Below, piece by piece: positions 1,877-45,603 of a DNA stretch of 64,000 nucleotides; position 1 is the first letter of the stretch, and each line of letters starts with the position of its first letter. The notes below the pieces were generated by a model. It ran no database searches and was not told the DNA's origin. It saw only the letters and a list, made by a program, of their open reading frames with translations. The stretch covers positions 416,001-480,000 of the forward strand of contig JAOZGC010000002.1 of assembly GCA_027491915.1 (NCBI GenBank), given 5' to 3'. Both the position numbers and the translations under genes were made by a program. This stretch comes from Thermoproteota archaeon (GTDB lineage: Archaea > Korarchaeota > Korarchaeia > Korarchaeales > Korarchaeaceae).

Positions 1877-1923
1877 CCAGTATATAGGGAAATTTTTATG
1901 AATTCTTTCCCTATATACCGGTC
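1875..1923. promoter_or_regulatory. 18-bp inverted repeat enclosing a TATA-like element (operator and/or terminator hairpin)
   Basis: GACCAGTATATAGGGAAA-N13(TTTTTATGAATTC)-TTTCCCTATATACCGGTC with 17/18 complementarity; AT-rich; ends immediately before GTG 1924. Confidence 0.75.
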
Positions 1924-3306
1924 GTGCTTCCCAGGGAGACGCTGGTCAGGGTGCTGAGGGACCAGCAAGAGGGGGTACCTCCCCCCCTCGTGAGGAGGGA
2001 TATCTCGATACCCACCCGCCCACCCCTCAGGAGGGCCGTCTCCGTGGTGGGGCCCAGGAGGGCCGGGAAGACCTACTCGATGTTCCAGCTCATGAGGGAC
2101 CTGATGTCCGCCGGGGTCGCCAGGGAGAGGCTCCTCTACCTGGACCTCGAGGACTACAGGCTGGCCGGAGCCGACCAGCGTGACCTCGGGAGGATAATAG
2201 ACCTCCACGCGGAGATTTACCCTGAGGCCTCTCGGGGGGAGAGGTGGATCTTTCTGGACGAGGTTCAGGCGATCCTCGGGTGGGAGGGGGTCGTCAGGAC
2301 CCTCCTGGACCTGGGGAGATCGTGGGTCTTCGTCACGGGTTCCTCCTCCAGGCTCCTGTCCAGGGAGGTGGCCACCCAGCTCAGGGGTAGGACCCTGACG
2401 TTCGAGCTGTTCCCCTTCTCGTTCAGGGAGTTCTTGAGGGCCAGGGGGGCCGGGGACCTGGTCAACGCCGCCGCCGGGGCGTCGAGCTCCGAGGAGGCGC
2501 GCCTGAAATCGCTCCTCCGGGAGTACCTCTCGCGGGGCGGGTACCCGGAGGCGGCGCTGAACCCCGGACTCGGGGAGAGGATACTCAGGGAGATATGGGA
2601 GGTGACCGTTTCCAGGGACCTGATAGACAGGTGGGGGATAAGGAACGTCAGGGCCCTGAGGCTCCTGGTGGGGGCGGTCAGGAGGTCGAGGGAGTTCTCG
2701 GTGCACGGGTTCTACAGGTACCTGAAGTCGATGGGCCTCAGGGTCGGCAAGGACACCCTCTACAACTACCTGGAGTACCTGAGGGACGCCATGATCGTCT
2801 TCCCCCTGCGGAGGTACTCCAGGTCCGTCAGGGAGATCGAGGCCACGTCTCCAAAGCTCTACCTGGTGGACAACGGGCTCTACCTCGGGGAGGTCGGGGA
2901 GGGGGAACTCATGGAGAACCTGGCGTTCCTGGAGCTGAGGCGGAGGGGGGCGGTGGAGGGAGAGAGGCTCTTCTACTGGAGGTCCAGGTCGGGATCCGGG
3001 GAGGTGGACTTCCTGATTGCGGACTCCCGACTCCGCCCGACGAGGCTCGTCCAGGTGACCCGAGAGGTCAGGTGGGACGACCCCAGGCAGGTCAGGAGGG
3101 AGCTTGGCTCCCTCGTCAGGGCGGCCCGGGAGACCGGGTGCCGGAGCCTTTGGGTGGTCACCTGGGATCAGGAGGGAGCCGAGGTCTTCGAGGGCGCGGA
3201 GGTCGAGCTGGTCCCCATGTGGAGGTGGGCGCTCGGGTTCCCCTCGGGGTTCTGGGAGGGGGTATCCCCCAGATTCCCGGCGGGCGCTCACCCGCCGGGG
3301 GAGTAG
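1924..3306 (+). CDS. AAA+ ATPase (AAA_14 + DUF4143 type) with C-terminal PD-(D/E)xK-like region
   Basis: Walker A GPRRAGKT, Walker B IFLDEVQ, VTGSSS, LRGR, PFSFREF, GGYPE, KLYLVDNG, EVDF. Confidence 0.9.
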   Translation: MLPRETLVRVLRDQQEGVPPPLVRRDISIPTRPPLRRAVSVVGPRRAGKTYSMFQLMRDLMSAGVARERLLYLDLEDYRLAGADQRDLGRIIDLHAEIYPEASRGERWIFLDEVQAILGWEGVVRTLLDLGRSWVFVTGSSSRLLSREVATQLRGRTLTFELFPFSFREFLRARGAGDLVNAAAGASSSEEARLKSLLREYLSRGGYPEAALNPGLGERILREIWEVTVSRDLIDRWGIRNVRALRLLVGAVRRSREFSVHGFYRYLKSMGLRVGKDTLYNYLEYLRDAMIVFPLRRYSRSVREIEATSPKLYLVDNGLYLGEVGEGELMENLAFLELRRRGAVEGERLFYWRSRSGSGEVDFLIADSRLRPTRLVQVTREVRWDDPRQVRRELGSLVRAARETGCRSLWVVTWDQEGAEVFEGAEVELVPMWRWALGFPSGFWEGVSPRFPAGAHPPGE

Positions 3307-4652
3307 CGGAACCCCGAGACGTCCCCCAGGATGAGGACCGGCTCCTTCCCCAGATCCAAGACCACCTCCCCCGCCCCCCGGGCTACCTCGCCGCCGGCCA
3401 GGTCCAGGACCGTTAGGTTCCCCCTCCCTTCTATCACCAGGGGACCGACCTGCTCCGGCCCCCTGACGACCCACCAGTCCTGCCAGACGACCGAGATCGG
3501 CCCTTGGGGCGTCGAGAACTTGAACAGGTAGGTCAGGGTGTCGTTCCGGGAGAGCTCCAGCTCGGCCCTCCCGAGCAGCCTCGAGAGGGTCTGGTACGCG
3601 TAGAACGCCCTCTTCTTGACCCCCTCCCCCCCGTCCCATGGTCCCTTCCCGTCGTAGACGAGTCCCGACTGGTCGAAGAATCCCTCGCCGGTCCCCTCGT
3701 AGCTGGGCTCCTCGACGTAGCACCAGAACACCTTCTCCACCCCCACGGCCCGGAGCACCACGAACCTCTTCACCAGGTCGGCGGCCTGCTCCTCCTCGGT
3801 CTGACACACCTCGCCGACGCAGCCGGAGAAGGTGGACGTCTCCTGGACCCAGATGGGCCTGTCACCCAGCCCGTACTCCTCCAGGACGGACCTCATCTCC
3901 CTGTATATCTCCACGCCGGACAGGTAGTTCTCGGCCCCGGGGAGCCGCCTGGACGGGGCCGCCAGCCCGTAGTAGTGGAAGTTGAACACGTCCACCAGGT
4001 CCCCGACCCCCCGATCCAGGAAGGCCCTCAGGTAGGGGATCAGGATGGACCCGTCGAGCAGGCCCCCCATGACGACCTTGCAGTCGGGGCAGGCCCTCTT
4101 TATCGCCGAGGCGTACACGGAAAATCTATCCGCGTACTCTTCCGGGCCGCAGGACGTCCCCCACCCGCCGTTCTCCTCGTTTCCCACCATCCAGAGGGTC
4201 ACCCTCCTCCCGACCAGCTCCGCTCCCCTGCCCTCGGTGTAGTACCTGACTATCTCCTCGACGGCCCGGGACGTCTCGTTGGGATCCCTCATCTCGGGGG
4301 CCCAGAAGGCTGCCAGCGGCTCCGATCCGTTCCCCACAACCCACCTCATCGCCTTTGTGTTCCTGATCTCCTGCTTGGATCCCACGTAATCGGGGGTGGC
4401 CCCCAGGAAGAAGCCGTAGCTGTGTACGTCCACCATGAGCTCGGAGAGGTACCTCTTGTCGTGGACTATACCCGTTATTCCGAAGAAACCGTCCCTCTCA
4501 GCCGGTTTGGGTTGGGGCTCCACCCCTCCCCCGGGCTCCACCCCTCCCCCGGGCTCCACCCCTCCGGGGCCTCTCGTGGCGAGCGCGGCCACAAAGAAGA
4601 ACGCGACGGCGACCGCCGCCAGGAGAATGGGGATCCTGCTCCCCCTTCCCAT
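3288..4652 (-). CDS. Membrane-anchored or secreted clan GH-A glycoside hydrolase (GH39/GH5-like)
   Basis: N-terminal hydrophobic anchor, (GGGVEP)n linker, acid/base WMVGNE, FNFHYY, nucleophile PIWVQE, K-x-A-F-x-A-Y, C-terminal beta-rich domain. Confidence 0.75.
   Translation of the reverse strand: MGRGSRIPILLAAVAVAFFFVAALATRGPGGVEPGGGVEPGGGVEPQPKPAERDGFFGITGIVHDKRYLSELMVDVHSYGFFLGATPDYVGSKQEIRNTKAMRWVVGNGSEPLAAFWAPEMRDPNETSRAVEEIVRYYTEGRGAELVGRRVTLWMVGNEENGGWGTSCGPEEYADRFSVYASAIKRACPDCKVVMGGLLDGSILIPYLRAFLDRGVGDLVDVFNFHYYGLAAPSRRLPGAENYLSGVEIYREMRSVLEEYGLGDRPIWVQETSTFSGCVGEVCQTEEEQAADLVKRFVVLRAVGVEKVFWCYVEEPSYEGTGEGFFDQSGLVYDGKGPWDGGEGVKKRAFYAYQTLSRLLGRAELELSRNDTLTYLFKFSTPQGPISVVWQDWWVVRGPEQVGPLVIEGRGNLTVLDLAGGEVARGAGEVVLDLGKEPVLILGDVSGFRYSPGG
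4515..4565. repeat. 18-bp in-frame tandem repeat, about 2.8 copies (GGGCTCCACCCCTCCCCC), encoding the GGGVEP linker
   Basis: Read directly from the sequence. Confidence 0.9.
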
Positions 4653-4748
4653 GGGCGCGAAACCGACCGCTTGAATAAAAACGGCGGCCCCGCCGGCCGC
4701 TCGGCCGCTTTTTAATGGTCCCCGCGCGCCGCCCGACCGGGACCTCCT

Positions 4749-6602
4749 CTGGACGAGGGCGGGGAGATCTCGCTGAAGAGGGACGTCGGCTGGTTCGGAT
4801 CTTTCGCGATGGGCTACGCCGACGTCGGGGCCGACGTGTTCATGGCGCTCGGGATGGTGGCCTCCTATGCCGCCGGGGCGCTTCCCCTGGCCTTCTCGGT
4901 GGCCGCCGTCGTTTACGTCCTCACCGGCCTCGTCTACGCCGAGCTGGCCTCAACCTACCCCTACGCCGGCGGGGCCCAGGTTTACGCCGCCCGCGGCCTG
5001 GGAGACGCGGCTGGCTTCGTCGCCGGGTGGGCCCTCATCCTGAGCTACACCGTGGACGTGGCCCTCTTCTCCCTTGCGGCGGCCGGTTACCTGTCCTACT
5101 TCCTCCCCTGGCTTGCCTCCCGCGTCGAGCTGTTCGGCCTCGGCGTGCGCAGCGTCTCGGCGTGCGCAGCTCTTGTCTCGGCCTCCCTGACGGCCCTGAA
5201 CCTGGTCGGCATAAGGGGATCCTCCCGCCTGAACGAGGCCATGGTGGCGCTGGGCCTGACCGTCCAGGCTCTGCTCCTGATCGTTGGTCTCGCCAGTTTG
5301 GATTTGGAGTCCCTCTCCGCTTCCATCTCTGAGGTGGGCAGCCCTGGGGCCAGGCCAGGGGTCTCCTACCTCCCCGGAATAGACCTGAGGACGCAGAACT
5401 TCCTCTACGCGTCGACCCTGGCCATGAGTTCCTTCGTAGGGGTTGAGTCCATCGCCCAGGCCGCCGAGGAGATAAGGAGACCCCACAGGTGGATCCCCGT
5501 GGCCACCAAGCTCTCGGTGGCCTCCGTCCTCGTGTTCGCCCTGGGCCTCTCGGCGGTGGGAGTCGGGACGGTCGGGTGGAGGGCCCTGGCTGCGGCGGAG
5601 GAGAGGCCCCTGACCGCCCTGGCCTTCTCCCTCCCCCTGATCGGTCCGATCGCCTCTCCGGTCGTGGCCGCCACGGGCTTCGCCATAAACCTGGTCTCGG
5701 CAAACACCGGGATAATAGGGGTCTCCAGGGTGGCCTACTCCATGGGGAAGTACGGCCTGCTCCCCTCTTGGTTCAGGGTGGTCCACCGAAGGTGGAGGAC
5801 GCCGGCGCGCACCGTGCTGACGTTCGGGGCCATAGGCTCGGCTGCCGCCCTGGTGGGGGGGCTGGATTCCGTCGCCGACGTCTACGCCTTCGGCGCCCTG
5901 ATCTCCTATCTCTTGGTTCACCTGAGCGTCATAAAGCTGAGGAACATGGACAGGGACGCCTACAGGCCCTGGAGGTCTCCTGGCTCCGTCTCTATCTCCG
6001 GGCGCGAGGTCCCGCTCGTCGGGGCGGCCGGCGCGCTGGCGACGGCCTCGATGCTCGCCCTGGTGGCCGCCATGCACCCGGTGGGGAGGACCATGGGCTC
6101 GGCGTGGATCGCGGCCGGACTGGCCGTATACGCCTCCTACAGGAGGGCCGTCGGCCTGCCGATCCTGGGAAGGCTGTCCGGTTCGGCGGTGAAGCCCGCC
6201 TCCCGCGTACTCGACGTGTTGGTTCCCCTGGAGCCCAGGTTCCCCCCCGAGGTCATCGCCGAGGCCGTCTCCTCGGCCCTCAGGGACAGGGCGAGGGTCC
6301 ACCTCCTGGCGGCCGTCGACCCGACCTCGCCGGGCGCCGCGTCCGAGGCCGAGGAGCTTTCTCGCTTCCTGGACGAGGTCGCCTCCCTCCTCAGGGACAG
6401 GGTGGCCGGGGTCGGCGCCTCCCTGAGGTGGGGAGATCCGGCCGACGCCACCTTAGAGGAGGCGAGGCGCGGCTCCTACGACCTGATTCTGATCCTGGCC
6501 GGAAGGAGGCCCGTCAAGGGATCCCCTGGCGGAATTATTAGTCGGCTGACCAGGGATCTCCCCGGCAGGCTGGAGGTGGTGAGATGGGGAAGTTCCTGGT
6601 GA
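4749..6602 (+). CDS. APC-family amino acid permease with C-terminal USP domain (probable CTG start)
   Basis: LKRDVGWFGSFAMG, YAELAS..P.AGG, SFVGVESIAQAAEE, SRVAYSM, RWRTP, C-terminal GDPA..YDLI USP signature. No ATG/GTG/TTG lies between the in-frame stop at 4713 and ATG 4809. Confidence 0.88.
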   Translation: MDEGGEISLKRDVGWFGSFAMGYADVGADVFMALGMVASYAAGALPLAFSVAAVVYVLTGLVYAELASTYPYAGGAQVYAARGLGDAAGFVAGWALILSYTVDVALFSLAAAGYLSYFLPWLASRVELFGLGVRSVSACAALVSASLTALNLVGIRGSSRLNEAMVALGLTVQALLLIVGLASLDLESLSASISEVGSPGARPGVSYLPGIDLRTQNFLYASTLAMSSFVGVESIAQAAEEIRRPHRWIPVATKLSVASVLVFALGLSAVGVGTVGWRALAAAEERPLTALAFSLPLIGPIASPVVAATGFAINLVSANTGIIGVSRVAYSMGKYGLLPSWFRVVHRRWRTPARTVLTFGAIGSAAALVGGLDSVADVYAFGALISYLLVHLSVIKLRNMDRDAYRPWRSPGSVSISGREVPLVGAAGALATASMLALVAAMHPVGRTMGSAWIAAGLAVYASYRRAVGLPILGRLSGSAVKPASRVLDVLVPLEPRFPPEVIAEAVSSALRDRARVHLLAAVDPTSPGAASEAEELSRFLDEVASLLRDRVAGVGASLRWGDPADATLEEARRGSYDLILILAGRRPVKGSPGGIISRLTRDLPGRLEVVRWGSSW

Positions 6603-6853
6603 TCCTCAACGTCTACGTTGACAGCAGGAGGCTGGAGGACGTGGTGGAGGCCCTCCTAGGGATGCCGGAGGTGGTGGACCTGTACGAGGTGACCGGGAGC
6701 TACGACGTGGTGGCGGTGGTGGAGACCGACTCCAAGGAGAGCTTCAGGTCTCTGCTGGTCAAGAGGATCCTGAGGATAGGGGGGGTCAAAGAGACCAACA
6801 GCTCCGTCATCCTCCACGTCCACAAGAGGGCCGGGGAGGCGGTGGAGGGTTGA
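6584..6853 (+). CDS. Stand-alone Lrp/AsnC ligand-binding (RAM) domain protein
   Basis: PEV..LYEVTGSYDVVA..GVKETNS motif; no HTH; overlaps the upstream gene. Confidence 0.88.
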   Translation: MGKFLVILNVYVDSRRLEDVVEALLGMPEVVDLYEVTGSYDVVAVVETDSKESFRSLLVKRILRIGGVKETNSSVILHVHKRAGEAVEG

Positions 6854-7269
6854 GCCCAAAGCTGAGGGTCCTGGCGCCGGTGGCCGGCCCCGAGGAGGCG
6901 GCCGCCCTCCTGGGGGTCCTGTCGGGCGTCCTCGCGGGGGGCTTCGAGGTGGTCGTCCTCGGCGTCATCCCCGTCCCGGCCGCCTCCCCCCTGGACGCCC
7001 CGGAGCTGGCAGACGAGGCGAGGGAACTGGAGACGACCCTCGGCGCGGCCGCGGCCCGCTCGCCAGTTCTCCCCGGGCGGGTGACCGCGAGGGTGGTCCT
7101 GGCCAGGGATCCCGCCGGGGCTGTGATGGAGTCGCTCGAGGGGTTCGACCTGCTCGCGGTCTCCACCGGGTTCCTGAGGTCTGCGCGTGGGGTGTTCGGC
7201 GGGATCAGGGTCGAGGACGCGGCGGAGGCCGGCATCCCGGTGCTCGTCTGGGCCGCCCCAGGGAGGTGA
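6850..7269 (+). CDS. Universal stress protein-like protein
   Basis: RVLAPV..VIPVP...PLDA...ARDPAGAV..FDLL..IPVLV; 4-bp overlaps on both sides. Confidence 0.65.
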   Translation: MSPKLRVLAPVAGPEEAAALLGVLSGVLAGGFEVVVLGVIPVPAASPLDAPELADEARELETTLGAAAARSPVLPGRVTARVVLARDPAGAVMESLEGFDLLAVSTGFLRSARGVFGGIRVEDAAEAGIPVLVWAAPGR

Positions 7270-8072
7270 TCGCGTCGCCCTCCCCACCCGACAGGGGGGA
7301 CGCGCTCCGCGTCGTCGGCTGGCTCGCCCTGGCCCAGTCCGTCGCCGGGGCCGCGGCCTGGCGGTTCGGAGTCATCCCTGAGTACCAGGTCGGTCCGGCC
7401 GAATCGGCCGGCCTGTCGGCCGGCTACGTCCTGGCCGTCTTCGCGGCGACGACGCTGATGTTGTACCTGCTCAGGAGGAGGCTCCTCTCCCTCCTGAGGC
7501 TTCTGATCTCGGCCTCCCTCTCCCTGTCCACCCTGGTCACCACGGCCTACCTCCTGGAATCCGCGGGCCTCCGGCCCGAGGTTTACCTCCCCGCGTCGTG
7601 CGCCGCGGCCCTCCTGGTCCTCCGCCCCGGGCTGCCCGGGAACGCGGCGAAGGCCGTATCGGCCGGGGCACTGGGCTACTTCTTCTCCACCCTCTTCCCC
7701 ACTCACTTCTCCCTCATCCTACTCGCGATGATGGCCGCATACGACGCCTACGCGGTCTTCAGGGGTCCCCTGTCCAGGATCTTGTCGGACGCGGCCTCGG
7801 TCTCCGAGCCCCGGGGCGGCCGGGTGATGGACCTGCTGACCATCCAGACCGGCGGGGTCTCCATAGGGTACGGCGACGCCTTCTTCTACTCCCTGGCGAC
7901 CGCGGTGTCCGTGGGCTCCCTCCCGCCGGTCCCCGCCCTCGCCTCCGTGGTCGCCCTGGAGGCCGGGATAGCGGCGACGCTGCTGGCCCTCCCGAAGGTC
8001 GGGAGGCCCCTGCCGGGGCTGACCCTCCCGGTGGCCCTGTGGCTGGCCTCCCTCCTGCTCTGGGGACCGTAA
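7266..8072 (+). CDS. Presenilin/SPP-family intramembrane aspartyl protease
   Basis: YD (AAYDAYAV), GxGD (IGYGDAFFYS) and PAL-like (PLPGL) motifs in a multi-TM protein. Confidence 0.85.
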   Translation: MIASPSPPDRGDALRVVGWLALAQSVAGAAAWRFGVIPEYQVGPAESAGLSAGYVLAVFAATTLMLYLLRRRLLSLLRLLISASLSLSTLVTTAYLLESAGLRPEVYLPASCAAALLVLRPGLPGNAAKAVSAGALGYFFSTLFPTHFSLILLAMMAAYDAYAVFRGPLSRILSDAASVSEPRGGRVMDLLTIQTGGVSIGYGDAFFYSLATAVSVGSLPPVPALASVVALEAGIAATLLALPKVGRPLPGLTLPVALWLASLLLWGP

Positions 8073-9197
8073 TCACCCCGGCGACGGCCGAGGCAGCCCG
8101 GAGGAGGCCAGGCGGGCGTATCCCTCCGCGGCCCTCCCCAACTCTCCCACCTCCACCGACTCGTCCGGCGTGTGGGCGGCGGACTCCTCGCCGGGGCCGT
8201 AGCCCAGGGTCGGGATCCCCTCCTCCCCGGCCGAGTAGGAGCCGTCCGTGCCGAACCTCCACACGGTCCTCCCAGCGCCGAGCACCCGCTGGGCCCAGTC
8301 GACCAGGGGACCCTCGTAGATCCAGGCCGGGAAGAAGGCCTCCACCTCCTCCGAGAATCCGGTGTAGCACCTGATCTCCCTCCGGACCACCCTGGCCTCC
8401 CTGGTTCCCCCGGCCGAGAGGAACCTCAGCACCGACTCCCTGGTCTCCCCCGGGACCATCCTGTAGTCCACCAGGACCTCGCAGGAGTCGGGGACCACTG
8501 GTATCTGCCCCGGACTGCAGGAGATGGCCACAGGGCAGGCGGTAGCCCTGCCGAGCAGGGGGTGATCGGGCAGGTCAGCCTCCCCCAGCTCCAGCGCTGC
8601 CCTGGCCGCCTTGACCAGCGCGCTGTCCCCGACGTCCGGCATGCTGGAGTGGCTGGTCCTCCCGCGGAACTCCAGGGCTACCTCGACCCTCCCCCTGTGT
8701 CCCACGGCCACCCTGAGTCCGGTGGCCTCCCCCAGGATGACCAGGTCCGGCCTCACCCCGAGCTCGTCCAGCGCGTGCCTCAGGCCGAACCCCTCCTGAT
8801 CCTCCTCGTGGACCACGAAGGCGAGGTACAGGTCGCTGGCCGGCTCCCCGATGAGCCCCACGGAGTGCACCATGGCCGCCACCGCCCCCTTCATGTCGGC
8901 CGCCCCCCGACCCACGAGCCTGCCCCCCCTGACCTCGCCGGCGAACGGGTCCACCGACCAGGCCGCCTCGTCTCCCGGGGGGACCACGTCCATGTGCCCG
9001 TCGAACAGGATCGCGCCCTCCCCGGACCCGGAGACTTTGGCCAGGACGTTTCCGACCCCATCCACCCTAACCCAGTCGACCCCCACCCTCGACAGCTCGT
9101 CCCTTATCAGGGCGGCCACGTCGCCCTCCGCCCCGGAGGGACTCGGGGTCCTCACCAGCTCCGCCGCGAACTCCACCAGTTCCCGGTCCGTGGGCAT
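8073..9197 (-). CDS. M20 family metallo-hydrolase (ArgE/DapE/YgeY-like)
   Basis: DGHMDVV, GRGAADMKG, HEE, GE.T, HSS.P, FGTDG, AHTPDE. Confidence 0.9.
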   Translation of the reverse strand: MPTDRELVEFAAELVRTPSPSGAEGDVAALIRDELSRVGVDWVRVDGVGNVLAKVSGSGEGAILFDGHMDVVPPGDEAAWSVDPFAGEVRGGRLVGRGAADMKGAVAAMVHSVGLIGEPASDLYLAFVVHEEDQEGFGLRHALDELGVRPDLVILGEATGLRVAVGHRGRVEVALEFRGRTSHSSMPDVGDSALVKAARAALELGEADLPDHPLLGRATACPVAISCSPGQIPVVPDSCEVLVDYRMVPGETRESVLRFLSAGGTREARVVRREIRCYTGFSEEVEAFFPAWIYEGPLVDWAQRVLGAGRTVWRFGTDGSYSAGEEGIPTLGYGPGEESAAHTPDESVEVGELGRAAEGYARLASSGLPRPSPG

Positions 9198-37620: not shown

Positions 37621-39669
37621 GTGGGCGCCAGATCGATACCGGCGGTCATCCTCCTGGCGTGCCTGGCGGCCCCCGCGGCCCAGACCCTCCGGGCCGGCGG
37701 CCTGGGTCAGGGCGGCGAGGCCTGGACGGTTCCCCTCAGGAGGGTCAGCGCCGTCTCCTGGTCTCCGAACGGGTCCCTCCTGGCCGTGGGCGCCGGCGAC
37801 GCCGTCCTCATCTTGAACTCCTCCGGGTCTGTGGTCTCTGAGGCGGAGCTGGGCGGAGAGGTTCTGGACGTCTCCTGGATGCCCGGATCCGTCGTGGCGT
37901 CCACCGCGCGGGGTCTTTTCAGGGCCTACCCGGGGCCCGTCGAAGAGATCTTCTCCCTCTCCGGCGAGGCCGACGCGTCCATCTTGGAACCCTCGCCCGA
38001 CGGCGGCCTGATGGCGGCCGCCTGGGGGTGGTCCCGGGGGCTCGAGGAGGGGGGCGTCCTCGCCCTCGTCGATCCGTCGGGCGGCGTGGCGGCCAGGTTG
38101 GATCTCCCCTCCTCTCCGTCTGATCTGGACTGGAGGCCGGACGGATCGGCCCTGGCCGTCGGGACCGTCGGGGGGATCACCCTGGCGGTGTCCCGCTCCG
38201 GCGAGAGGCTCTGGATCACCGACGTGAGGTCGGCCAGGCCCTTCGCCAACACCGTCAGGTCGGTCGAGTGGGTCCCGAACGGGACCCTGCTGTCCGAGGG
38301 ACTGGGTCCCAGGTTCGTGGACTTCCTCAGGGCCGAGACCGGGGGGCTGGCGGGGTACTTCACGATCCCGGGGATGCCCGCTGGCATCGATTGGACCCAA
38401 GAGGGGGACCTGCTGTGCGCCGGCGCGGGGGACAGGATCGCCATAGTTTCCCGGTCTGGCGAGCAGATCTGGGTGTCCGACGCCTTCATATCTCCCCCCA
38501 AAGTGATCGGCTGGTCCCCAGACGGCGACTCCTGCCTGGCCATCTCCCAGAAGTGGGCCTTGGCCGTCTCCCGGGACGGGGAGACCCTCTGGTTTGCATC
38601 TCCGGGGGATAGGGTGGTGGACGCCGAGTGGGGTCCGGCCGGGGCGGCCGTGGCGCTGGCCTGGGAGTCAGGCGTGGGGGTGTTCGCAGCCCGCCCCCAG
38701 CGGATTGAGCTATCCGCCGACCCCCTGGTCCCGGCCGGGGAGACCGAGGTGGAGATCCGCCTCTTCAACCCGCTCCCTTGGTCGATCGACGCGCGCCTCG
38801 ACCTCTCCGTGGGGGGATCGGGGGCAGGATCCCTGGAGCTCGAGGCCTCCCCTGGATGGAACTCCTGGAACGCGACCCTGGATCTCCCGCCCGGGGAGGT
38901 GGAGGTGGGGGCGCTGGCCGAGACCCCCCTGGGCGCCGCGTCCGCCTCGACCCGGGTGTCGGCCTTCCTCCCCCCGGAGGTAAACCTCTCCGTCTCCGCC
39001 TCTCCCGGCGGGCCGGCCGAGGTTCGGGCCCTCATCCACAACCCGAACCCGTCCGGGGGAAACTGCTCAGCCTCCCTCCTGATCGACGGGGCGCCCCGGG
39101 ACGGGTGGTCCGGCCCGTGTCCCTACGGCTGGACAGAGGCCTCCTGGGAGGTTCCCCTGGACCCCGGAGCCCACGGGGTGGAGGTCTCCCTCGAGTTCCT
39201 CGGGGTGGAGGTGAGATCTGGGACGGTCGAGGTGAGACAGCCGGCCGACCGGGTGGAGGTCTCCATAGGGAGGCCCTCTGGGGTGTGGGGCGAGGTCTCG
39301 GTCCCCGTGAGGGCGTCCAACCCCTATGACGGCGAGGTGGACCTGACGCTGGAAGTTTGGGTCGACGGGGTCCTCGCCGCGTCCCGCAACCTGACCCTCC
39401 CTCCCAGGGGAGAGGAGACGCTGCGGGTGCCCCTCCCGGGTGGAGACCACGAGGTCTACTCGAGGGCCCTCTGGCTCGGGAGGGTCCTGGGGGAGGCCAG
39501 GGCCAGGGTCTCGGTCCTCCCCGCCTGGCTCCCCGTCGCGGCCGCCGGCGCGGCGGCAGCCCTGGCCCTGGCTCTCCTGATGAGGAGGATCAGGGGCGCC
39601 CGAGAGGACAGGCGGGAGGCCCTCTTCCGCATCCTCGCGGGATCCCCGGACGGGGGAGGGTCGAGGTAG
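37621..39669 (+). CDS. Cell-surface protein: WD40-like beta-propeller, about 3 Ig-like (CARDB-like) domains, C-terminal TM anchor
   Basis: Signal peptide; repeated W(S/R)PxG..LA blades; V.NP...DG Ig repeats; TM plus basic tail. Confidence 0.75.
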   Translation: MGARSIPAVILLACLAAPAAQTLRAGGLGQGGEAWTVPLRRVSAVSWSPNGSLLAVGAGDAVLILNSSGSVVSEAELGGEVLDVSWMPGSVVASTARGLFRAYPGPVEEIFSLSGEADASILEPSPDGGLMAAAWGWSRGLEEGGVLALVDPSGGVAARLDLPSSPSDLDWRPDGSALAVGTVGGITLAVSRSGERLWITDVRSARPFANTVRSVEWVPNGTLLSEGLGPRFVDFLRAETGGLAGYFTIPGMPAGIDWTQEGDLLCAGAGDRIAIVSRSGEQIWVSDAFISPPKVIGWSPDGDSCLAISQKWALAVSRDGETLWFASPGDRVVDAEWGPAGAAVALAWESGVGVFAARPQRIELSADPLVPAGETEVEIRLFNPLPWSIDARLDLSVGGSGAGSLELEASPGWNSWNATLDLPPGEVEVGALAETPLGAASASTRVSAFLPPEVNLSVSASPGGPAEVRALIHNPNPSGGNCSASLLIDGAPRDGWSGPCPYGWTEASWEVPLDPGAHGVEVSLEFLGVEVRSGTVEVRQPADRVEVSIGRPSGVWGEVSVPVRASNPYDGEVDLTLEVWVDGVLAASRNLTLPPRGEETLRVPLPGGDHEVYSRALWLGRVLGEARARVSVLPAWLPVAAAGAAAALALALLMRRIRGAREDRREALFRILAGSPDGGGSR

Positions 39670-39740
39670 CCGGGGTACCTGGGGGCGCGGGGGACCGAGG
39701 GATCTTTTTTTATGGTCGCCCCACCTCAAACCGGATCCGC

Positions 39741-41015
39741 TTGCCAAAGCTCCTCTTCCTGGTGCTGGACGGCGCCGCCGACAGGCCCGAGCCCGGATCC
39801 GAGACCCCCCTGGAGGTGGCGTCGAAGCCGGGGATTGACTCCATCGCCCGCAGGTCGAGGTGCGGCCTGATGTACGTGCTGGGCAGGGGGAGGGCCCCGG
39901 AGAGCGACGCCGCCGTGATGGCTCTCCTGGGTCACGACCCGGACGAGTACTACCCCGGCAGGGGGGCCGTAGAGGCCCTGGGGGCGGGGGTGGAGTTGGG
40001 AGAGGGAGACGTGGCCTTCAGGGCCAACTTCGCGACCGTGGACCCGCGGACCCTCAGGATAGTGGACAGGAGGGCCGGGAGGGACGTCTCCCCGGAGGAG
40101 GCCTCGGACCTGGCCGCGGCCCTGGACGGGCTGGAGCTGGACGGCGTGAGGGTCAGGGTCAGGCCCACGCTGGGCCACAGGGCCGTGGTGGTCTTCTCCC
40201 CGAGGTCCGGGAGGCTGTCGCCCTCGGTGGGCAACACAGATCCGGCCTACGTCAGGTCCGGCCGCATAAGCGTGGCCGTCCCCAAGCCGGGAGACTCCAT
40301 CGTGCCGTGCGAGCCCCTGTCCCGGGACCCGGCCGCCGAGGCGACGGCGGCAGCCGTGAACGAGTTCACCAGGAGGGCCGTCGAGATACTGGACTCCCAC
40401 CCGGTGAACAGGATCAGGAGGGATCGGGGGAGCCTCCCTGCGAACGCCATCCTCCTGAGGGACGCCGGCGGCGCCCCCAGGACGCTGAGCCCCATCTGGG
40501 GATCCCGGGGGCTGAGGTTCGGGGCCGTCGCGGAGATGCCGGTGGAGGTGGGGGTGGCCAGGCTGCTCGGGATGGAGGTGGCTCAGGTCCCGCCGCCGAC
40601 CGGGGACCTGAGGGCCGACGCCCCCTCCAGGCTGGAGGCGACGCTGAGGCTGCTGAACTCGGTCGACGGAGTCTACGTCCACCTCAAGGGGCCCGACGAG
40701 CCCGGCCACGACGGGAACTTCTCCAGGAAGGTGGCCGCCATAGAGGCCATAGACTCGGCCTTCGTCTCCCCCCTTCTGGGGGAGCTGGACCCCTCCGAGG
40801 TCGGCCTGGTGGTGACGTCCGACCACGCCACCCCCTGGCGGCTGAGGAGCCACAGCGACGACCCGGTCCCCGTCGCCCTCACCGCTCCCGGATCCGGCGG
40901 GGACGGGGTGGACTCGTTCGACGAGGTCTGCTGCGGCCGGGGATCTCTGGGGGTGATTGACCACGCCCGGCGCCTCCTGCCGGAGGCGCTCGATGAGATC
41001 TTCGGGCCGGCGTGA
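39741..41015 (+). CDS. apgM: Archaeal 2,3-BPG-independent phosphoglycerate mutase
   Basis: LDGAAD, PESD, GRGAVEA.G, FRANFAT, HLKGPDEPGHDG, SDHATP, HSDDPVP. Confidence 0.9.
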   Translation: MPKLLFLVLDGAADRPEPGSETPLEVASKPGIDSIARRSRCGLMYVLGRGRAPESDAAVMALLGHDPDEYYPGRGAVEALGAGVELGEGDVAFRANFATVDPRTLRIVDRRAGRDVSPEEASDLAAALDGLELDGVRVRVRPTLGHRAVVVFSPRSGRLSPSVGNTDPAYVRSGRISVAVPKPGDSIVPCEPLSRDPAAEATAAAVNEFTRRAVEILDSHPVNRIRRDRGSLPANAILLRDAGGAPRTLSPIWGSRGLRFGAVAEMPVEVGVARLLGMEVAQVPPPTGDLRADAPSRLEATLRLLNSVDGVYVHLKGPDEPGHDGNFSRKVAAIEAIDSAFVSPLLGELDPSEVGLVVTSDHATPWRLRSHSDDPVPVALTAPGSGGDGVDSFDEVCCGRGSLGVIDHARRLLPEALDEIFGPA

Positions 41016-41965
41016 TCCGGAAAACCTTTTTCCGGTCGATCCCGCCGGGGCCGGGCGAGAACTTGGGGTTCGAGCGAGAGCGAAAGGAAGAGGGAGGGCC
41101 CGGGGAACCGTATGGGAGGCTCGCGTCCGAGGCCAGGGACGTGCACGCCGAGAGGCCGGCCAGGCCGCTGGGCCTCGACAGGGTCGGCTCGATCGGGGTG
41201 AGGGTTCCCCTGAGGGTCCCGGAGGGGATGATAGTCCCGGCGGAGGTGGACCTGCTCGTGGACCTCCCCCCAGGGAGGAGGGGAGTCGACCTCTCGAGGC
41301 AGGTGCTCGCCCTGCTGGAGGCCTCGGCCGGGGCCTCGGGGGGTCTGGACCTGGCGCGCCGGGCCGCCGAGGCCGCGTCCTCCAGGCTCCCCTACGCGAG
41401 GTCCGTGGAAGTCCGGGTGAGGTACTCGGGCCTCATCCCCAGGGGGCCGAACTCCTCGCCCGAGCCCTACTGGGCCGAGGCCGCCGTCCTGTCCCGCGCG
41501 GGGTCCAGGCGCGAGGAGCTCTCGGTCACCGTCCTGGGGACGACGGCCTGCCCCTGCACGCAGGAGCTGCTGCGCGCCCTGGCCGAGATGAGGGGGATGC
41601 CGCCCGGCGTCCCGGCGCCGACCCACACCCAGAGGGCCTCGGCCACCCTGACGGTCTCCTCCCGGGACGTCTCAGGGATCGGCGAGGGGGATCTGGTGGG
41701 GGTCCTCGAGCGGGGCCTGAGCTCCCCGGTCAGGTCGGCCCTTAAGAGGCCCCAGGAGGCCAGGCTCGTCGAGTCCATGCTGGAGAACCCGAGGCTGGTC
41801 GAGGACGCCGCGAGGGAGATCATGTGGCTGGCGGCCGATCTCCCCCTGCCGGAGGACGCGGAGATCAGGGTCTCGGTCAGGACCCAGGAGAGCGTCCACG
41901 GTCACGACCTGCTGGCCGAGGGGAGGGCCACCGTGGCGGACGTCAGGGCCGCCTCCGGGGCCTGA
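41012..41965 (+). CDS. mptA: GTP cyclohydrolase MptA/FolE2 family
   Basis: DV...P...LDRVG, VDLP..RRG, TACPC, THTQR, LKRPQE, NPRLVED..R, ESVHGHD; start may be TTG 41063. Confidence 0.88.
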   Translation: MIRKTFFRSIPPGPGENLGFERERKEEGGPGEPYGRLASEARDVHAERPARPLGLDRVGSIGVRVPLRVPEGMIVPAEVDLLVDLPPGRRGVDLSRQVLALLEASAGASGGLDLARRAAEAASSRLPYARSVEVRVRYSGLIPRGPNSSPEPYWAEAAVLSRAGSRREELSVTVLGTTACPCTQELLRALAEMRGMPPGVPAPTHTQRASATLTVSSRDVSGIGEGDLVGVLERGLSSPVRSALKRPQEARLVESMLENPRLVEDAAREIMWLAADLPLPEDAEIRVSVRTQESVHGHDLLAEGRATVADVRAASGA

Positions 41966-42719
41966 GGGCTCCGGCCACCGCGCACTCCCCCCAGGGGACG
42001 CTCAGGTCCCCCACGGATCCGGGCCCCAGGGCGTCCATCCCGCGCACCAGGGCCGCGGGCACGCCCTCTCCCCCCTCGCCGATCACCAGGTGGGCGGCGG
42101 ACGCCAGGGAGTCGAGCAGGTCCAGTTGGGTGATCCCTATCCTCCTCCCGAAGAGGTCGGTCCTCCCCCTGAGATCCAGCAGGGGCCTGACTCCCCAGGA
42201 ACCTATTGCCACGGACACGGTCCCCCTCCTGAGGGGCAGCAGGTAGCTGTCCGCCACCACCACCCCGACCCTGACCCCCTCCGCCCCCTCGATCCCCCGG
42301 GCCACCCTCCTGGCCGATCCGTCCGGGTCCTCGGGCCAGAGGGAGGCCATCCCGGCCGGGGCGTTCTTGAGGTCCACCCCGGCGTTCGGGACCATGATCC
42401 CCCGCTTTAGGGTCAGGATGGCCCACCTTACAGCCCCCAAAACCTCGTCCGCCTCGTCCAGCACCAGCTGGCAGAATTCAGGGGCCAGCCCAGTCTCGAC
42501 GGCTAGGTCCCGGGCCCGACCGCCCGGCCTCACCTCCGAGAGGTCGGCGTACCTCCCCTCCACGGCCGACACCGCCTTTGAGGACACCACCACCACATCC
42601 CCGACCTCGACGGGTCTGCCCGATCTCCTGGCGGCGGAGGCGACGGCGGCCGCCAGGTCGTCGCCGGGTCCGAGGATCCCCGTCCTGAGCGGGATCACCT
42701 CCACCGCCCCTCTCGCCAA
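41943..42719 (-). CDS. cofE: CofE-family gamma-glutamyl ligase (candidate folylpolyglutamate synthase, FolC2-like)
   Basis: GDVVVVSSKAVS..EGR, PNAGVD..N, P.DPD.SA, V.DS..PLRRG, DLFGR, GEG.EG.P..LVRG. Confidence 0.88.
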   Translation of the reverse strand: MARGAVEVIPLRTGILGPGDDLAAAVASAARRSGRPVEVGDVVVVSSKAVSAVEGRYADLSEVRPGGRARDLAVETGLAPEFCQLVLDEADEVLGAVRWAILTLKRGIMVPNAGVDLKNAPAGMASLWPEDPDGSARRVARGIEGAEGVRVGVVVADSYLLPLRRGTVSVAIGSWGVRPLLDLRGRTDLFGRRIGITQLDLLDSLASAAHLVIGEGGEGVPAALVRGMDALGPGSVGDLSVPWGECAVAGALRPRRRP

Positions 42720-43468
42720 ATCGAGATCGCCTCCCACAGGGAGCCGACCCTCTCCACCCCGGGGATCTCCCTCCCCCACCCGGTGAGCGTGGCGACCCTG
42801 ACCTCCGCTGCCAGGTCGGCGAGCAGCCTCGCGGCGACCTCGAGCTTCAGGAACTTCCTCCCGAGGTCCTTCCCAGACTCCTCGTCGTGTCGACTCACCC
42901 CGGCCAGGTCCATGCCGGCCAGGATGATCCCGTCCGCCCCGGCGGCGGCCGCCAGGTGGGCGGCCCTGTCCCCGTCCGTGAACCCGCCGAAGTTCCTGAC
43001 CCCGCCGACCGGCGCCGCCTGGGTCGTCCCGAGGCACGGCGCCAGCCTGGGCACGAGGGACCTGAGCCTCCCCAGGTTGTCCCCGTGGGCGTGGACCACC
43101 AGGATGGAACCGGCCCTCCCGGCCGCCTCCAGGATATCGGGATCTCCGTCCAGGTCTGTGACGACCACCTCCGGCACCAGCCCGGCCCTCAGGGCCTCGG
43201 CGGCGGCCCCGTCGGCGGCCACCACGGGCACCCCCCCGCCCACCACCCCCCTGCCCAGGTCCCTCCCGGCCGAGGGGCCGTTCCCGAGGACGACGACGGG
43301 CCCCCCGCCCAGCCTCTCCTCGACCTCCCCGGGGTCCACCCGACCGTGCTCCTCCAGGAGATCGTCCAGCGCCTCGGCCGCGGCCGCGTCCGCGGCCGGG
43401 TCGAGCCCGAGGAGGTCCGCTATCCACCGGTAGGTCGGGAGCCACCGGCCTAGATCCGCGTCCATCAT
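42695..43468 (-). CDS. mptE: 6-hydroxymethyl-7,8-dihydropterin pyrophosphokinase (DUF115)
   Basis: G.GPS, AADGA, VTDLDG, VHAHGDN, GTTQ, NFGGFTDGDRA, K..KL. Confidence 0.9.
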   Translation of the reverse strand: MMDADLGRWLPTYRWIADLLGLDPAADAAAAEALDDLLEEHGRVDPGEVEERLGGGPVVVLGNGPSAGRDLGRGVVGGGVPVVAADGAAAEALRAGLVPEVVVTDLDGDPDILEAAGRAGSILVVHAHGDNLGRLRSLVPRLAPCLGTTQAAPVGGVRNFGGFTDGDRAAHLAAAAGADGIILAGMDLAGVSRHDEESGKDLGRKFLKLEVAARLLADLAAEVRVATLTGWGREIPGVERVGSLWEAISIWREGRWR

Positions 43469-43520
43469 CGCCCCGCCGCGGCCCGGAAGGAATATATCAG
43501 TCTCGTCGCCGGATCGCCGG

Positions 43521-44753
43521 ATGTCAGAGTCCTCCCTTGGGGGCCTTAAGGTGGGATGGGGCTACCCCGTGCGCGTCTTCGCCGTCGTTAACCTAAGTCC
43601 CGAGTCCTTCTACAGGGGATCCGTGGCCAGAGACCTCGACTCCCTGATGGAGATGGTGGAGTCTGCCGTGGAGGCGGGGGCCGACGCCGTGGACGTGGGG
43701 GGAATGTCGTCGGCCCCGTACGTGGACGGGTGGGTCCCCGCCGAGGAGGAGACCAGGAGGGTGATCCCGGCCGTCAGGTCGATATCGGGCTCCTTCGACG
43801 TCCCGGTGATAGTGGACACGTGGAGGTCGGAGGTCGCCGAGGCGGCCCTTGGGGCGGGCGCAGCGGCTGTGAACGACGTCACCGGTCTTAGGGGGGACGA
43901 GCGGATGGCCGACCTGATAGCCGAGAGCGGGGCCTCCGCCGTCCTGTGCGCCAGCGGCCCGGTGGTGGACCCCTCCGACCCGATCCTGGAGGTCAGGAGG
44001 CTCCTGAGGGAGAGCCTCTCCGTTGCCAGGGGGGCAGGGATCGACCCGGAGAGGATCCTGATAGACCCGGCGATAGGCTTCTTCAGGGATGCCGGCGTCC
44101 CCTGGTACGAGTGGGACGCTAAGATCCTGGCCGGCCTGAGGCGGCTCTCGATACTTGAGAGGCCCGTGGAGGTGGGCGTGTCAAGGAAGTCCTTCATAGG
44201 CGAGATAGCCGGCGCGCCCACCCCGGAGGGGAGGCTCCCAGGGTCCCTGGCCGCGGCGGCGGCCGCCGTGATTAACGGGGCCTCGGCCGTTAGGACCCAC
44301 GATCCGGCCGAGACGGTCCAGGCTGTCAGGGTGGCCGAGGCGATTAGGGATCCCCCAAGGGAGTGCTCCTACGGCCTGGTCTCGTGCTCCGAGCTTGTGG
44401 GACTCACCGCGGACGACGCGATGGAGCTCATGGGGGAGATGGGGGTCCACCCGGTCGGCTCCAGGATAATGGCGCGAAAGTCCACGTTCAGGCTCCTCCT
44501 CCTTAGGAACGTGGCCGCCCCGGTGGCCAGCGTGGTCAAGCAGGAGATGCTCGCCTCCGGGGGTGACTGCGCCACCCCCACGCAGACCATCGTGTCGGGG
44601 AGTGGGGGAAGGGTTCGGATCCTGATCATGGGCACCGACGCCCAGATCTCGAGGCTGATCTCGAAGCTCAAGGCCGACGTGAGCCACGGGATGGGTCTCA
44701 GGTCCGACTTCGAGGACGTTCTCATGGTGATATCCGAGATCCTCGGCGGGTGA
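43521..44753 (+). CDS. folP: Dihydropteroate synthase with a C-terminal ~130-aa dihydropteroate-reductase-like domain
   Basis: VNLSPESF, DVGG.S, VDT, VNDV, DP.IGF, GVSRKSF, VRTHD; tail MG.....IM..K...KQEMLASGGDCATP...LIMGT..Q..RLI.KL. Confidence 0.9.
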   Translation: MSESSLGGLKVGWGYPVRVFAVVNLSPESFYRGSVARDLDSLMEMVESAVEAGADAVDVGGMSSAPYVDGWVPAEEETRRVIPAVRSISGSFDVPVIVDTWRSEVAEAALGAGAAAVNDVTGLRGDERMADLIAESGASAVLCASGPVVDPSDPILEVRRLLRESLSVARGAGIDPERILIDPAIGFFRDAGVPWYEWDAKILAGLRRLSILERPVEVGVSRKSFIGEIAGAPTPEGRLPGSLAAAAAAVINGASAVRTHDPAETVQAVRVAEAIRDPPRECSYGLVSCSELVGLTADDAMELMGEMGVHPVGSRIMARKSTFRLLLLRNVAAPVASVVKQEMLASGGDCATPTQTIVSGSGGRVRILIMGTDAQISRLISKLKADVSHGMGLRSDFEDVLMVISEILGG

Positions 44754-45603
44754 GCCCGGGGGCGGACGCCGCGGCGGCCCCGGCCAGTATGAGGGCGACT
44801 CCCGCCAGCCTGCGCCCGGACGGCGGCTCCCCCAGGATCAGGATCCCGAGGACCGCGGCCGTGGCCGGCTCCAGCGTGGATATGACGCCCGCCCTGGAGG
44901 CCTCGATCCTCCTGAGCCCCTCGGCCTGGAGGACATAGGCCAGGGCCGCCGTGGCGAGGCCCATGTACGCGCCCGGGAGGACCGAGCAGGTCGGCGGGAG
45001 ACCCGGCTCGACCGCCGCGGCCTCCAGGGCGGCCCACGGGAGGGGGCCCAGGCCGACCTCCAGGGGGCTGAGCCCCGCCCTGTCCACCAGGTACCTGGAG
45101 GCGGCGATCACGCCGGCGTAGGCCAGGCCGGACCCGAGACCCAGCGCGAGCCCCCGGGCCGAGAGCCCTTCCCCCGGGCCGGACCTGATGGTCGCCACAC
45201 CGGCCAGGGCCAGGATCACGGCCGCGGCCTTGGCCCGGGTGAGCTCCTCCCCCAGGAAGATCTTCCCCAGGATGGGGACCATCGCCGGGGCCGTGTAAAG
45301 CAGGGCGGCCGCCGTCCCGGCGTCGGACGCTTCCACGGCCCCCAGGTAGAGCAGGTAGAGGGGGCCGGAGAGCGCGAGTCCGTAGAGGATCACCCTGGGG
45401 TCGGGCGGCCTCCTGACGATCATGTAGTACGCCAGGCTGGCGGCCGAGCCGAAGGCGGCCCTTAGGAAGGCCCACCGCGCGGGAGAGACGCCGCACGATG
45501 AGAAGGCCCTCTCCACGATCCCGAGGGTCCCCCATATCAGGGCCGCGGCCGCGACGAAGGCGGCCCCGCCGACCTCATCCCCATCTGATACACCTGCCCT
45601 CAC
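44722..45603 (-). CDS. EamA/DMT family transporter
   Basis: About 10 TMs; LLYTAP...FLGE, STLEP..A..LG..ILGE. Confidence 0.88.
   Translation of the reverse strand: MRAGVSDGDEVGGAAFVAAAALIWGTLGIVERAFSSCGVSPARWAFLRAAFGSAASLAYYMIVRRPPDPRVILYGLALSGPLYLLYLGAVEASDAGTAAALLYTAPAMVPILGKIFLGEELTRAKAAAVILALAGVATIRSGPGEGLSARGLALGLGSGLAYAGVIAASRYLVDRAGLSPLEVGLGPLPWAALEAAAVEPGLPPTCSVLPGAYMGLATAALAYVLQAEGLRRIEASRAGVISTLEPATAAVLGILILGEPPSGRRLAGVALILAGAAAASAPGLTRRGSRISP

Follow-up and report, generated by a model that had tools for sequence, protein, structure and literature searches.

A cluster of four adjacent genes in a Thermoproteota archaeon of the family Korarchaeaceae (assembly GCA_027491915.1) probably encodes a pathway of the tetrahydrofolate type in which FolC and DHFR are both dispensable. 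The genes lie in a 64-kb stretch of DNA with a G+C content of roughly 69% (positions 416,001 to 480,000 of contig JAOZGC010000002.1), which we call the window. They comprise mptA (+ strand), a cofE-like gene (− strand), mptE (− strand) and folP (+ strand), the last of which carries an extra C-terminal domain of the Prd type. An initial annotation of the window had described these genes as adjacent, and both their coordinates and their matches to Pfam and NCBIfam models agree with that description. Many archaea have FolP and folate-dependent enzymes, yet no recognizable FolC or DHFR; the genome of Methanosarcina acetivorans, used as a control, gave a match to neither. With a separable CofE clade located beside FolP–Prd, there is a specific candidate for each of the two missing steps, and this pair can be tested in tractable hosts.

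In the pathway we propose, MptA would open the route by converting GTP to dihydroneopterin phosphate, from which a phosphodiesterase or phosphatase and an aldolase would produce 6-hydroxymethyl-dihydropterin. MptE would pyrophosphorylate this intermediate, and the FolP domain would condense the product with an arylamine, presumably para-aminobenzoate (pABA) or a related compound, to give dihydropteroate. The fused Prd domain, a putative small flavoprotein module, would reduce dihydropteroate to the tetrahydro level. Finally, if reduction does come before glutamylation, the CofE-family protein, a predicted GTP-dependent amide-forming ligase from a group that we term clade A, would add one or more γ-linked glutamates.

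The pterin branch begins with a GTP cyclohydrolase from the MptA/FolE2 (GCYH-IB) family. Its open reading frame (ORF) spans 41012–41965 on the + strand, with a likely GTG start at 41141 (41141–41965), and matches PF02649 over residues 42–302 with 153.8 bits. Against the equivalog models it scores 183.7 bits for MptA (TIGR00294, cut-off 220) and 122.2 bits for FolE2 (NF010200, cut-off 215). The mptE gene (42695–43468, − strand) encodes a 6-hydroxymethyl-7,8-dihydropterin diphosphokinase that matches PF01973 at 62.4 bits (cut-off 34.6).

Searches of the whole host genome with hidden Markov models (HMMs) found no match to FolC (TIGR01499), DHFR (PF00186), CofD (TIGR01819) or CofH (TIGR03551). The assembly contains 1,116,564 bases in four contigs and is 91.16% complete with 0% contamination; all absences reported here for the host apply to a genome of this 91% completeness. 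Translated searches (tblastn) of the same genome with single seeds for CofC, CofD, HPPK (folK), FolB and FolC returned nothing at E ≤ 1. The initial annotation had proposed a genome-wide search for these and other pterin genes, in which folC, folA, cofD, cofH, mptD and mptG gave no HMM match and cofC gave no tblastn match. A full F420 pathway together with canonical folC and folA, the combination that it had named as contrary to a folate role for the cluster, was not found in the host genome.

A CofE clade linked to FolP

The CofE-family ligase is encoded on the − strand, where a mechanically called ORF of 500 amino acids spans 41943–43445. Because this ORF matches PF01996 (207.1 bits) from residue 253 onward, over residues 253–469 alone, the true start is most likely the GTG at 42704 or at 42698, which gives a protein of 253 or 251 amino acids and a gene at 41943–42704. 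We placed this protein in a maximum likelihood tree of 58 CofE homologs (IQ-TREE, LG+C20). The tree contains 31 rows from the host genome and 17 relatives (29 of these rows come from the relatives, at one to three genomes per genus), 19 FolP-linked CofEs from the best 80 loci that carry a Prd-type domain, and 8 additional paralogs that six of those genomes encode. Two loci that duplicated others were removed, and the set excludes partial matches below 100 bits as well as many full-length matches from other members of the same genera.

The homologs separate into clade A and clade B, with ultrafast bootstrap (UFBoot) and Shimodaira–Hasegawa-like approximate likelihood ratio test (SH-aLRT) values of 100/99. 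Clade A holds 32 rows, including the window CofE and 26 of 26 FolP-linked rows, and clade B holds 26 rows, including all four that are CofD-adjacent. Eleven genomes encode one clade-A member and one canonical clade-B member each.

The two groups also differ in their scores against established models. For 19 clade-A proteins these range from 160 to 229 bits with TIGR01916, the equivalog model for F420 CofE, and from 92 to 140 bits with TIGR04132, the model for chlamydial FolC2. The corresponding ranges are 214–341 and 61–112 bits for 14 canonical proteins (group B1), and 146–198 and 33–71 bits for five proteins of a third group, B2. Because 16 of the 19 tested clade-A proteins exceed the TIGR01916 cut-off, members of this clade get named F420 ligases, which inflates predicted F420 use in genomes that lack cofD.

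Residues that contact the F420 chromophore point in the same direction. In structures of Archaeoglobus fulgidus CofE (Af-CofE) with F420, as described in PMC10861534, the deazaflavin chromophore has F92 stacked behind it and the G153–C155 segment at its front face, where R234 of the dimer partner also lies, π-stacking above the pyrimidine ring of the chromophore. The window CofE aligns over its full length with PDB entries 2g9i and 7uld (E = 5e-45), and we mapped residues by means of 2g9i and the 58-row alignment. The R154 column is arginine in 100% of canonical rows, glutamine in 50% of clade A and leucine in the window CofE. The R234 column is arginine in 84% of canonical rows, isoleucine in 72% of clade A and valine in the window CofE, in which the F92 position is tryptophan. 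In every clade the catalytic site retains its invariant D, N, E and G columns, and the columns of the metal, GTP and glutamate sites are conserved in the window CofE. Because the catalytic columns are kept while the equivalents of R154, R234 and F92 are replaced, the ligase chemistry looks retained and the chromophore pocket looks changed. Thus, the window CofE resembles canonical CofE (A. fulgidus AF2256, M. jannaschii MJ0768) in its full-length alignment and its conserved metal, GTP and glutamate sites, but differs from it in its separate clade, in the replaced R154 and R234 equivalents and in a host genome where no F420 pathway was found.

The pairing of this clade with FolP extends well beyond the host. 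When the window proteins were compared by tblastn with the best 80 Prd loci, 19 of the 26 loci with the Prd domain C-terminal to FolP had a CofE no more than 8 kb away, versus none of the other 54. At eight loci CofE starts no more than 120 nucleotides downstream of FolP–Prd on the same strand; these are labelled Methanocellales (two), Methanoperedenaceae, Methanothrix/Methanotrichaceae (two), Odinarchaeota, Promethearchaeota and Hydrothermarchaeota. Within a set of 31 related genomes, the host counted, PF01996 is matched in 29 and the Prd-type domain is present in 17. Of these 17, 13 have CofE within 2.5 kb of the Prd domain, one has it 11.7 kb away and three have it on another contig. All 19 genomes of the host family encode a CofE homolog, and CofD was found in none of them.

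None of the 31 relatives has a FolC match over the cut-off. Among 37 Prd-bearing genomes, FolC was found in 0 of 11 with a FolP-linked CofE, in 6 of 12 other archaea and in all 14 bacteria.

The FolP–CofE pairing is found again in many archaeal lineages, in genomes where FolC was not found (0/11). In the tree, which was built without the chlamydial protein CT611, the window CofE groups with the FolP-linked CofEs and not with the CofD-adjacent ones (100/99). The separate clade, the coexistence of canonical paralogs in 11 genomes, the absence of FolC from all 11 genomes with the linked gene, the absence of CofD across the 19 family genomes and the loss of the two arginines argue, on comparative grounds, for the proposal that this CofE acts as a folate or pteroate ligase. 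As a separate observation, the frame of a FolP-linked CofE from a Methanothrix sp. (locus L052, 8336–9232) continues into a cytidine-deaminase-like stretch (residues 264–299 of the scanned piece), which may reflect a fusion or a missed stop codon.

The closest functional precedent comes from bacteria. Chlamydia trachomatis FolC2 (CT611), which also belongs to COG1478/PF01996, is reported in PMC1971073 and PMC4161248 to complement an Escherichia coli folC mutant, and the same papers place the gene in a folate cluster of genomes that have neither FolC nor F420 genes. The window CofE shares with FolC2 the PF01996 fold family, a folate gene cluster and a genome that lacks FolC, but it falls outside the TIGR04132 group (93.5 bits, cut-off 350) and belongs to an archaeal clade whose partner is FolP–Prd.

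The C-terminal domain of FolP

The folP ORF (43521–44753, + strand, 410 amino acids) encodes a dihydropteroate synthase with an extra C-terminal domain. Its catalytic domain (43521–44357) matches PF00809 over residues 21–260 with 192.7 bits and scores 205.7 bits with TIGR01496, against a cut-off of 162.6. The remainder, a Prd-type domain of about 130 amino acids (44358–44753, residues ~280–410), gave no match to any Pfam or NCBIfam family. A phmmer search with residues 280–410 recovered 268 representatives at E ≤ 0.001. A Pfam scan of 45 among the 150 relatives listed found PF00809 in 32, with the Prd-type domain N- or C-terminal of it; GCHY-1, FolB and HPPK are the partner once each, and 10 have no Pfam match. 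No Pfam family covers the Prd-type domain itself in these 45 proteins.

A 55-sequence alignment of the domain (A1) reveals the core motif KQEMLAxGGD...(T)D.LLMGT..Q...L..KL, and a scan of species-representative genomes located at least 578 Prd loci. The best 80 of these are spread over numerous lineages of archaea and anaerobic bacteria; in 26 of them the domain is C-terminal to FolP, in 44 it is N-terminal and in 10 it stands apart from FolP. Despite these 268 representative matches and at least 578 genomic loci, the domain is still without a Pfam family. In the three other fusions it follows a GCHY-1 cyclohydrolase, precedes FolB (Peptococcaceae/Desulfotomaculum) and follows HPPK (P0026, P0057 and P0116). 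We also considered whether the domain could be the missing aldolase, and rejected this because the domain is itself fused to FolB (P0057).

A relationship to a known architecture emerged from a sample of 151 genomes from the phylum to which a Methanosarcina genome belongs. The Prd-type domain occurs in 42 of these genomes, and in nine of the 151 the A1 profile falls within open frames of 806–981 amino acids (E values of 1e-21 to 6e-4). All three long frames examined consist of Mur_ligase_M, Mur_ligase_C and Pterin_bind domains, that is, FolC-X-FolP, with the match lying inside X (residues ~469–572 in the frame at locus L085). BLASTP aligns the host domain with the linker of a FolC-X-FolP protein at 31% identity over 86 residues (E = 1e-5). 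By these comparisons, the extra domain of FolP and the linker in FolC-X-FolP fusions are homologs.

The haloarchaeal version of this architecture has been named FolC-Prd-FolP in PMC3403918, and PMC1971073 lists Prd/DHFR2 as a flavin-dependent dihydropteroate reductase fused to dihydropteroate synthase (DHPS). The window domain is like the Prd/DHFR2 segments of Helicobacter pylori FolP and of haloarchaeal FolC-Prd-FolP in being a small FolP-fused domain in genomes without DHFR. It differs in lying C-terminal to FolP, with no FolC fused or found. The link to H. pylori comes from the literature: Levin et al. (2004, 2007) are reported to have found that the N-terminal segment of H. pylori FolP shares homology with the haloarchaeal linker and is the part with DHFR-complementing activity.

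The distribution of DHFR is also consistent with a reductase function. DHFR was found in none of the 31 relatives, the host included. Among the 37 Prd-bearing genomes it appears once, as a marginal match of 25.1 bits, and in none of the 14 bacteria, versus 10 of 14 control genomes. The homology to the FolC-X-FolP linker and the near absence of DHFR (1/37) speak for the earlier suggestion that the extra domain supplies the reduction step, and we propose that it acts as a flavin-dependent reductase of dihydropteroate in place of DHFR.

An AlphaFold2 model of the domain, computed with A1, has a predicted local distance difference test score (pLDDT) of 88.0 and a predicted template modelling score (pTM) of 0.75. 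The whole 410-residue FolP–Prd protein, folded without an alignment, reached a pLDDT of 37.5, and the domain alignment was used instead. In a broad structural search with the model, ThyX occupies ranks 1–4 (Z scores of 8.2, 7.2, 7.0 and 6.8, with 100–111 residues aligned) and ThyX-like PolB occupies rank 6 (Z of 6.0), such that five of the top six matches belong to the ThyX family. ThyX binds both flavin and folate. A ThyX-like fold would fit a reductase role, with Z values that are middling by the tool's own note. Other searches with the domain gave little. Foldseek against PDB found nothing at E ≤ 0.001 and listed weak KH-domain rows alone, a sequence-profile search of PDB returned only a designed protein (E = 0.099), and a word-index search found no match beyond the protein itself. 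Matches in the ESM Atlas fall in clusters of about 120 amino acids that are unnamed or labelled 'dihydropteroate synthase', with no Pfam family.

Both non-canonical parts of the cluster have precedents, in Chlamydia FolC2 and in Prd/DHFR2. A full-text search found no publication on an archaeal CofE clade linked to FolP–Prd, although supplementary tables may list such candidates. As far as we have searched, a CofE clade that differs from canonical CofE as well as from the FolC2 model, and that is a candidate FolC replacement in methanogens, Asgard archaea and others, is unreported.

Genomes that carry both a clade-A CofE and the Prd domain are labelled methanogens, anaerobic methanotrophic archaea (ANME), Asgard archaea, Hydrothermarchaeota and Thermoproteota. 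A broader proposal, to which we give a little less than even credence, is that clade-A CofE is the archaeal dihydrofolate synthase/folylpolyglutamate synthase and that, with Prd, it forms an ancient and widespread FolC- and FolA-independent end of the pathway. Reduction would then possibly precede glutamylation, by way of tetrahydropteroate, and the FolC2 proteins of Chlamydia and the candidate phyla radiation (CPR) would derive from this clade and not from an F420 enzyme. If this is true, many archaeal annotations of 'coenzyme F420-0:L-glutamate ligase' are wrong.

Proposed product, ligase and reductase weighed against alternatives

Several findings weigh against the tetrahydrofolate pathway as we propose it. 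The support is comparative; the 91% completeness of the host genome weakens the absences on which part of the argument depends; and the related genomes are non-independent samples. The archaeal route to 6-hydroxymethyl-dihydropterin is given in PMC12506659, which cites de Crecy-Lagard et al. 2012, as MptA–MptB–MptD–MptE. The window cluster shares the MptA-type cyclohydrolase and the MptE kinase with this route, but for the aldolase step neither MptD (PF04038) nor FolB (PF02152) gave an HMM match in the host genome. The same search found no match to ThyX (PF02511), ThyA (PF00303), FolD (PF02882) or chorismate-binding enzymes (PF00425). With no match to a chorismate-binding enzyme, no PabB was found in the host genome, nor was a route to pABA. 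The lack of PabB, FolD, ThyA, ThyX, MptD and FolB therefore means that the product may differ from classical folate, and it could be a modified folate.

These same absences bear on the alternative that survives best, which we nevertheless consider unlikely. On this alternative, the cluster makes a pterin other than folate, either a modified folate, as occurs in archaea, or a methanopterin-like carrier built on another arylamine, which CofE glutamylates and Prd reduces. It would account for the missing FolD, ThyA and ThyX in the host and for the absence of a chorismate-binding enzyme from all five genomes searched. However, β-ribofuranosylaminobenzene 5′-phosphate (β-RFAP) synthase, MptG (TIGR00144), which defines the methanopterin branch, has no match in the host genome and reaches at most sub-cut-off scores in its family. 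FolP, moreover, exceeds the DHPS equivalog cut-off. Serine hydroxymethyltransferase (SHMT) was found in the host by HMM search, and ThyX is present in 16 of the 18 other family genomes. A search of the host genome with ten ThyX seeds taken from relatives reached an E value of 0.12 at best. The ThyX of this family, about 300 amino acids long, contains an insertion that splits its Pfam match (loci L135–L142).

For the ligase, some model scores and gene neighbourhoods also count against the proposal. The window CofE scores 191.1 bits with TIGR01916, above its cut-off of 180.65, and far below the cut-off of the FolC2 model, as given above. The host also encodes a second CofE paralog outside the window (contig C4, 342206–342943; L002 1450–2358, + strand; 302 amino acids), which is 33% identical to the window CofE, has an insertion of about 45 amino acids and lacks pterin genes around it. 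Nearby are an ORF resembling thioredoxin reductase and genes for a GNAT acetyltransferase and a membrane protein. It falls in group B2 (7 of the 58 rows, 100/99), which also occurs in an Odinarchaeota and a Promethearchaeota genome. Furthermore, in one genus of relatives (g7; G021 and G022), a clade-A CofE follows genes for a nitroreductase, CofD, CofC and the S component of an energy-coupling factor (ECF) transporter, all on one strand. This run abuts MptA, FolP–Prd and MptE (in G021, L104, G021:C53:60700-70000, 1908–8295). It may represent an FO/F420 salvage operon joined to a pterin cluster, and the clade-A CofE may have a role in F420 there. Another genus, from the host family (g3; G002, G006 and G010; loci L092–L095 and L125), encodes a canonical-type CofE with TIGR01916 scores of 266–302 bits, and has no CofD match and no Prd match. 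CofE-family proteins clearly have further uses in the host lineage.

The TIGR01916 score and the g7 run speak for the alternative that the window CofE is an ordinary F420-0:L-glutamate ligase, acting on FO or F420-0 that is taken up, with its pterin neighbourhood a chance clustering of cofactor genes. We regard this as very unlikely. The host has no HMM match to cofD or cofH and no tblastn match to cofC or cofD, cofD was found in none of the 19 family genomes, and without CofD the conversion of FO to F420-0 is impossible. CofD-adjacent CofEs sit in the other clade, G021 carries a canonical CofE in addition (L103, TIGR01916 score of 312.5 bits), and the arginines that contact the chromophore are replaced. 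Chance clustering also fits poorly with a link to FolP that recurs, by locus labels, in Methanocellales, Methanotrichaceae, Methanoperedens, Methanosarcinaceae, Hydrothermarchaeota, Odinarchaeota and Promethearchaeota.

For the Prd domain, Z scores of 7–8 lie in the range that the structural search tool gives for unrelated best matches. When A1 was compared profile to profile with an alignment of 10 ThyX sequences (A2), the probability was 0.5%, and the resemblance to ThyX therefore comes from structure alone. That the domain is instead a regulatory or oligomerization module of pterin-branch enzymes, with an unrelated enzyme performing the reduction, would suit its size of only about 105 residues, its fusion to enzymes as diverse as FolP, GCHY-1, FolB and HPPK (as in many ligand-sensing domains) and its lack of a PDB sequence relative or a significant Foldseek match, but is improbable given its homology to the FolC-X-FolP linker, which is called Prd in PMC3403918 and a reductase in PMC1971073, the presence of DHFR in only 1 of 37 Prd-bearing genomes and in none of the 14 bacteria even though all 14 have FolC, and best structural matches to the flavin- and folate-binding ThyX.

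Geometry of the locus and its neighbours

The four genes are tightly packed. The mptA and cofE genes converge and overlap by 23 nucleotides (41943–41965), the start of cofE overlaps the stop of mptE (42695–42704), and mptE and folP diverge with start codons 52 nucleotides apart. The sole AT-rich element of the mptE–folP gap is the sequence AATATAT at 43491–43497, which lies midway, 26–27 nucleotides from both start codons. This position suggests a candidate TATA box common to mptE and folP, which would then yield leaderless transcripts. The same four genes occur together at six loci of related genomes (L088, L096, L097, L098, L100 and L104) and at L006, and the set is found again, with its order shuffled, in five genera of relatives. 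Because the same four genes cluster in loci of related genomes, the arrangement exceeds chance.

Downstream of folP, a gene for an EamA-family transporter (44722–45603, − strand; PF00892, 114 bits) converges on folP with a 32-nucleotide overlap. The initial annotation had extended the cluster to position 45603, an end coordinate that takes in this fifth gene and does not fit its own four-gene description.

On the other side of the cluster, an apgM-type phosphoglycerate mutase homolog (39357–41015, + strand) scores 387 bits with the apgM subfamily model (cut-off 320) and also 441 bits with the phosphonoformyl-transferase model PhpG (cut-off 545). Directly after the stop codon of this gene, and upstream of mptA, lies an inverted repeat at 41017–41037 (CCGGAAAACC/TTTTTCCGG).

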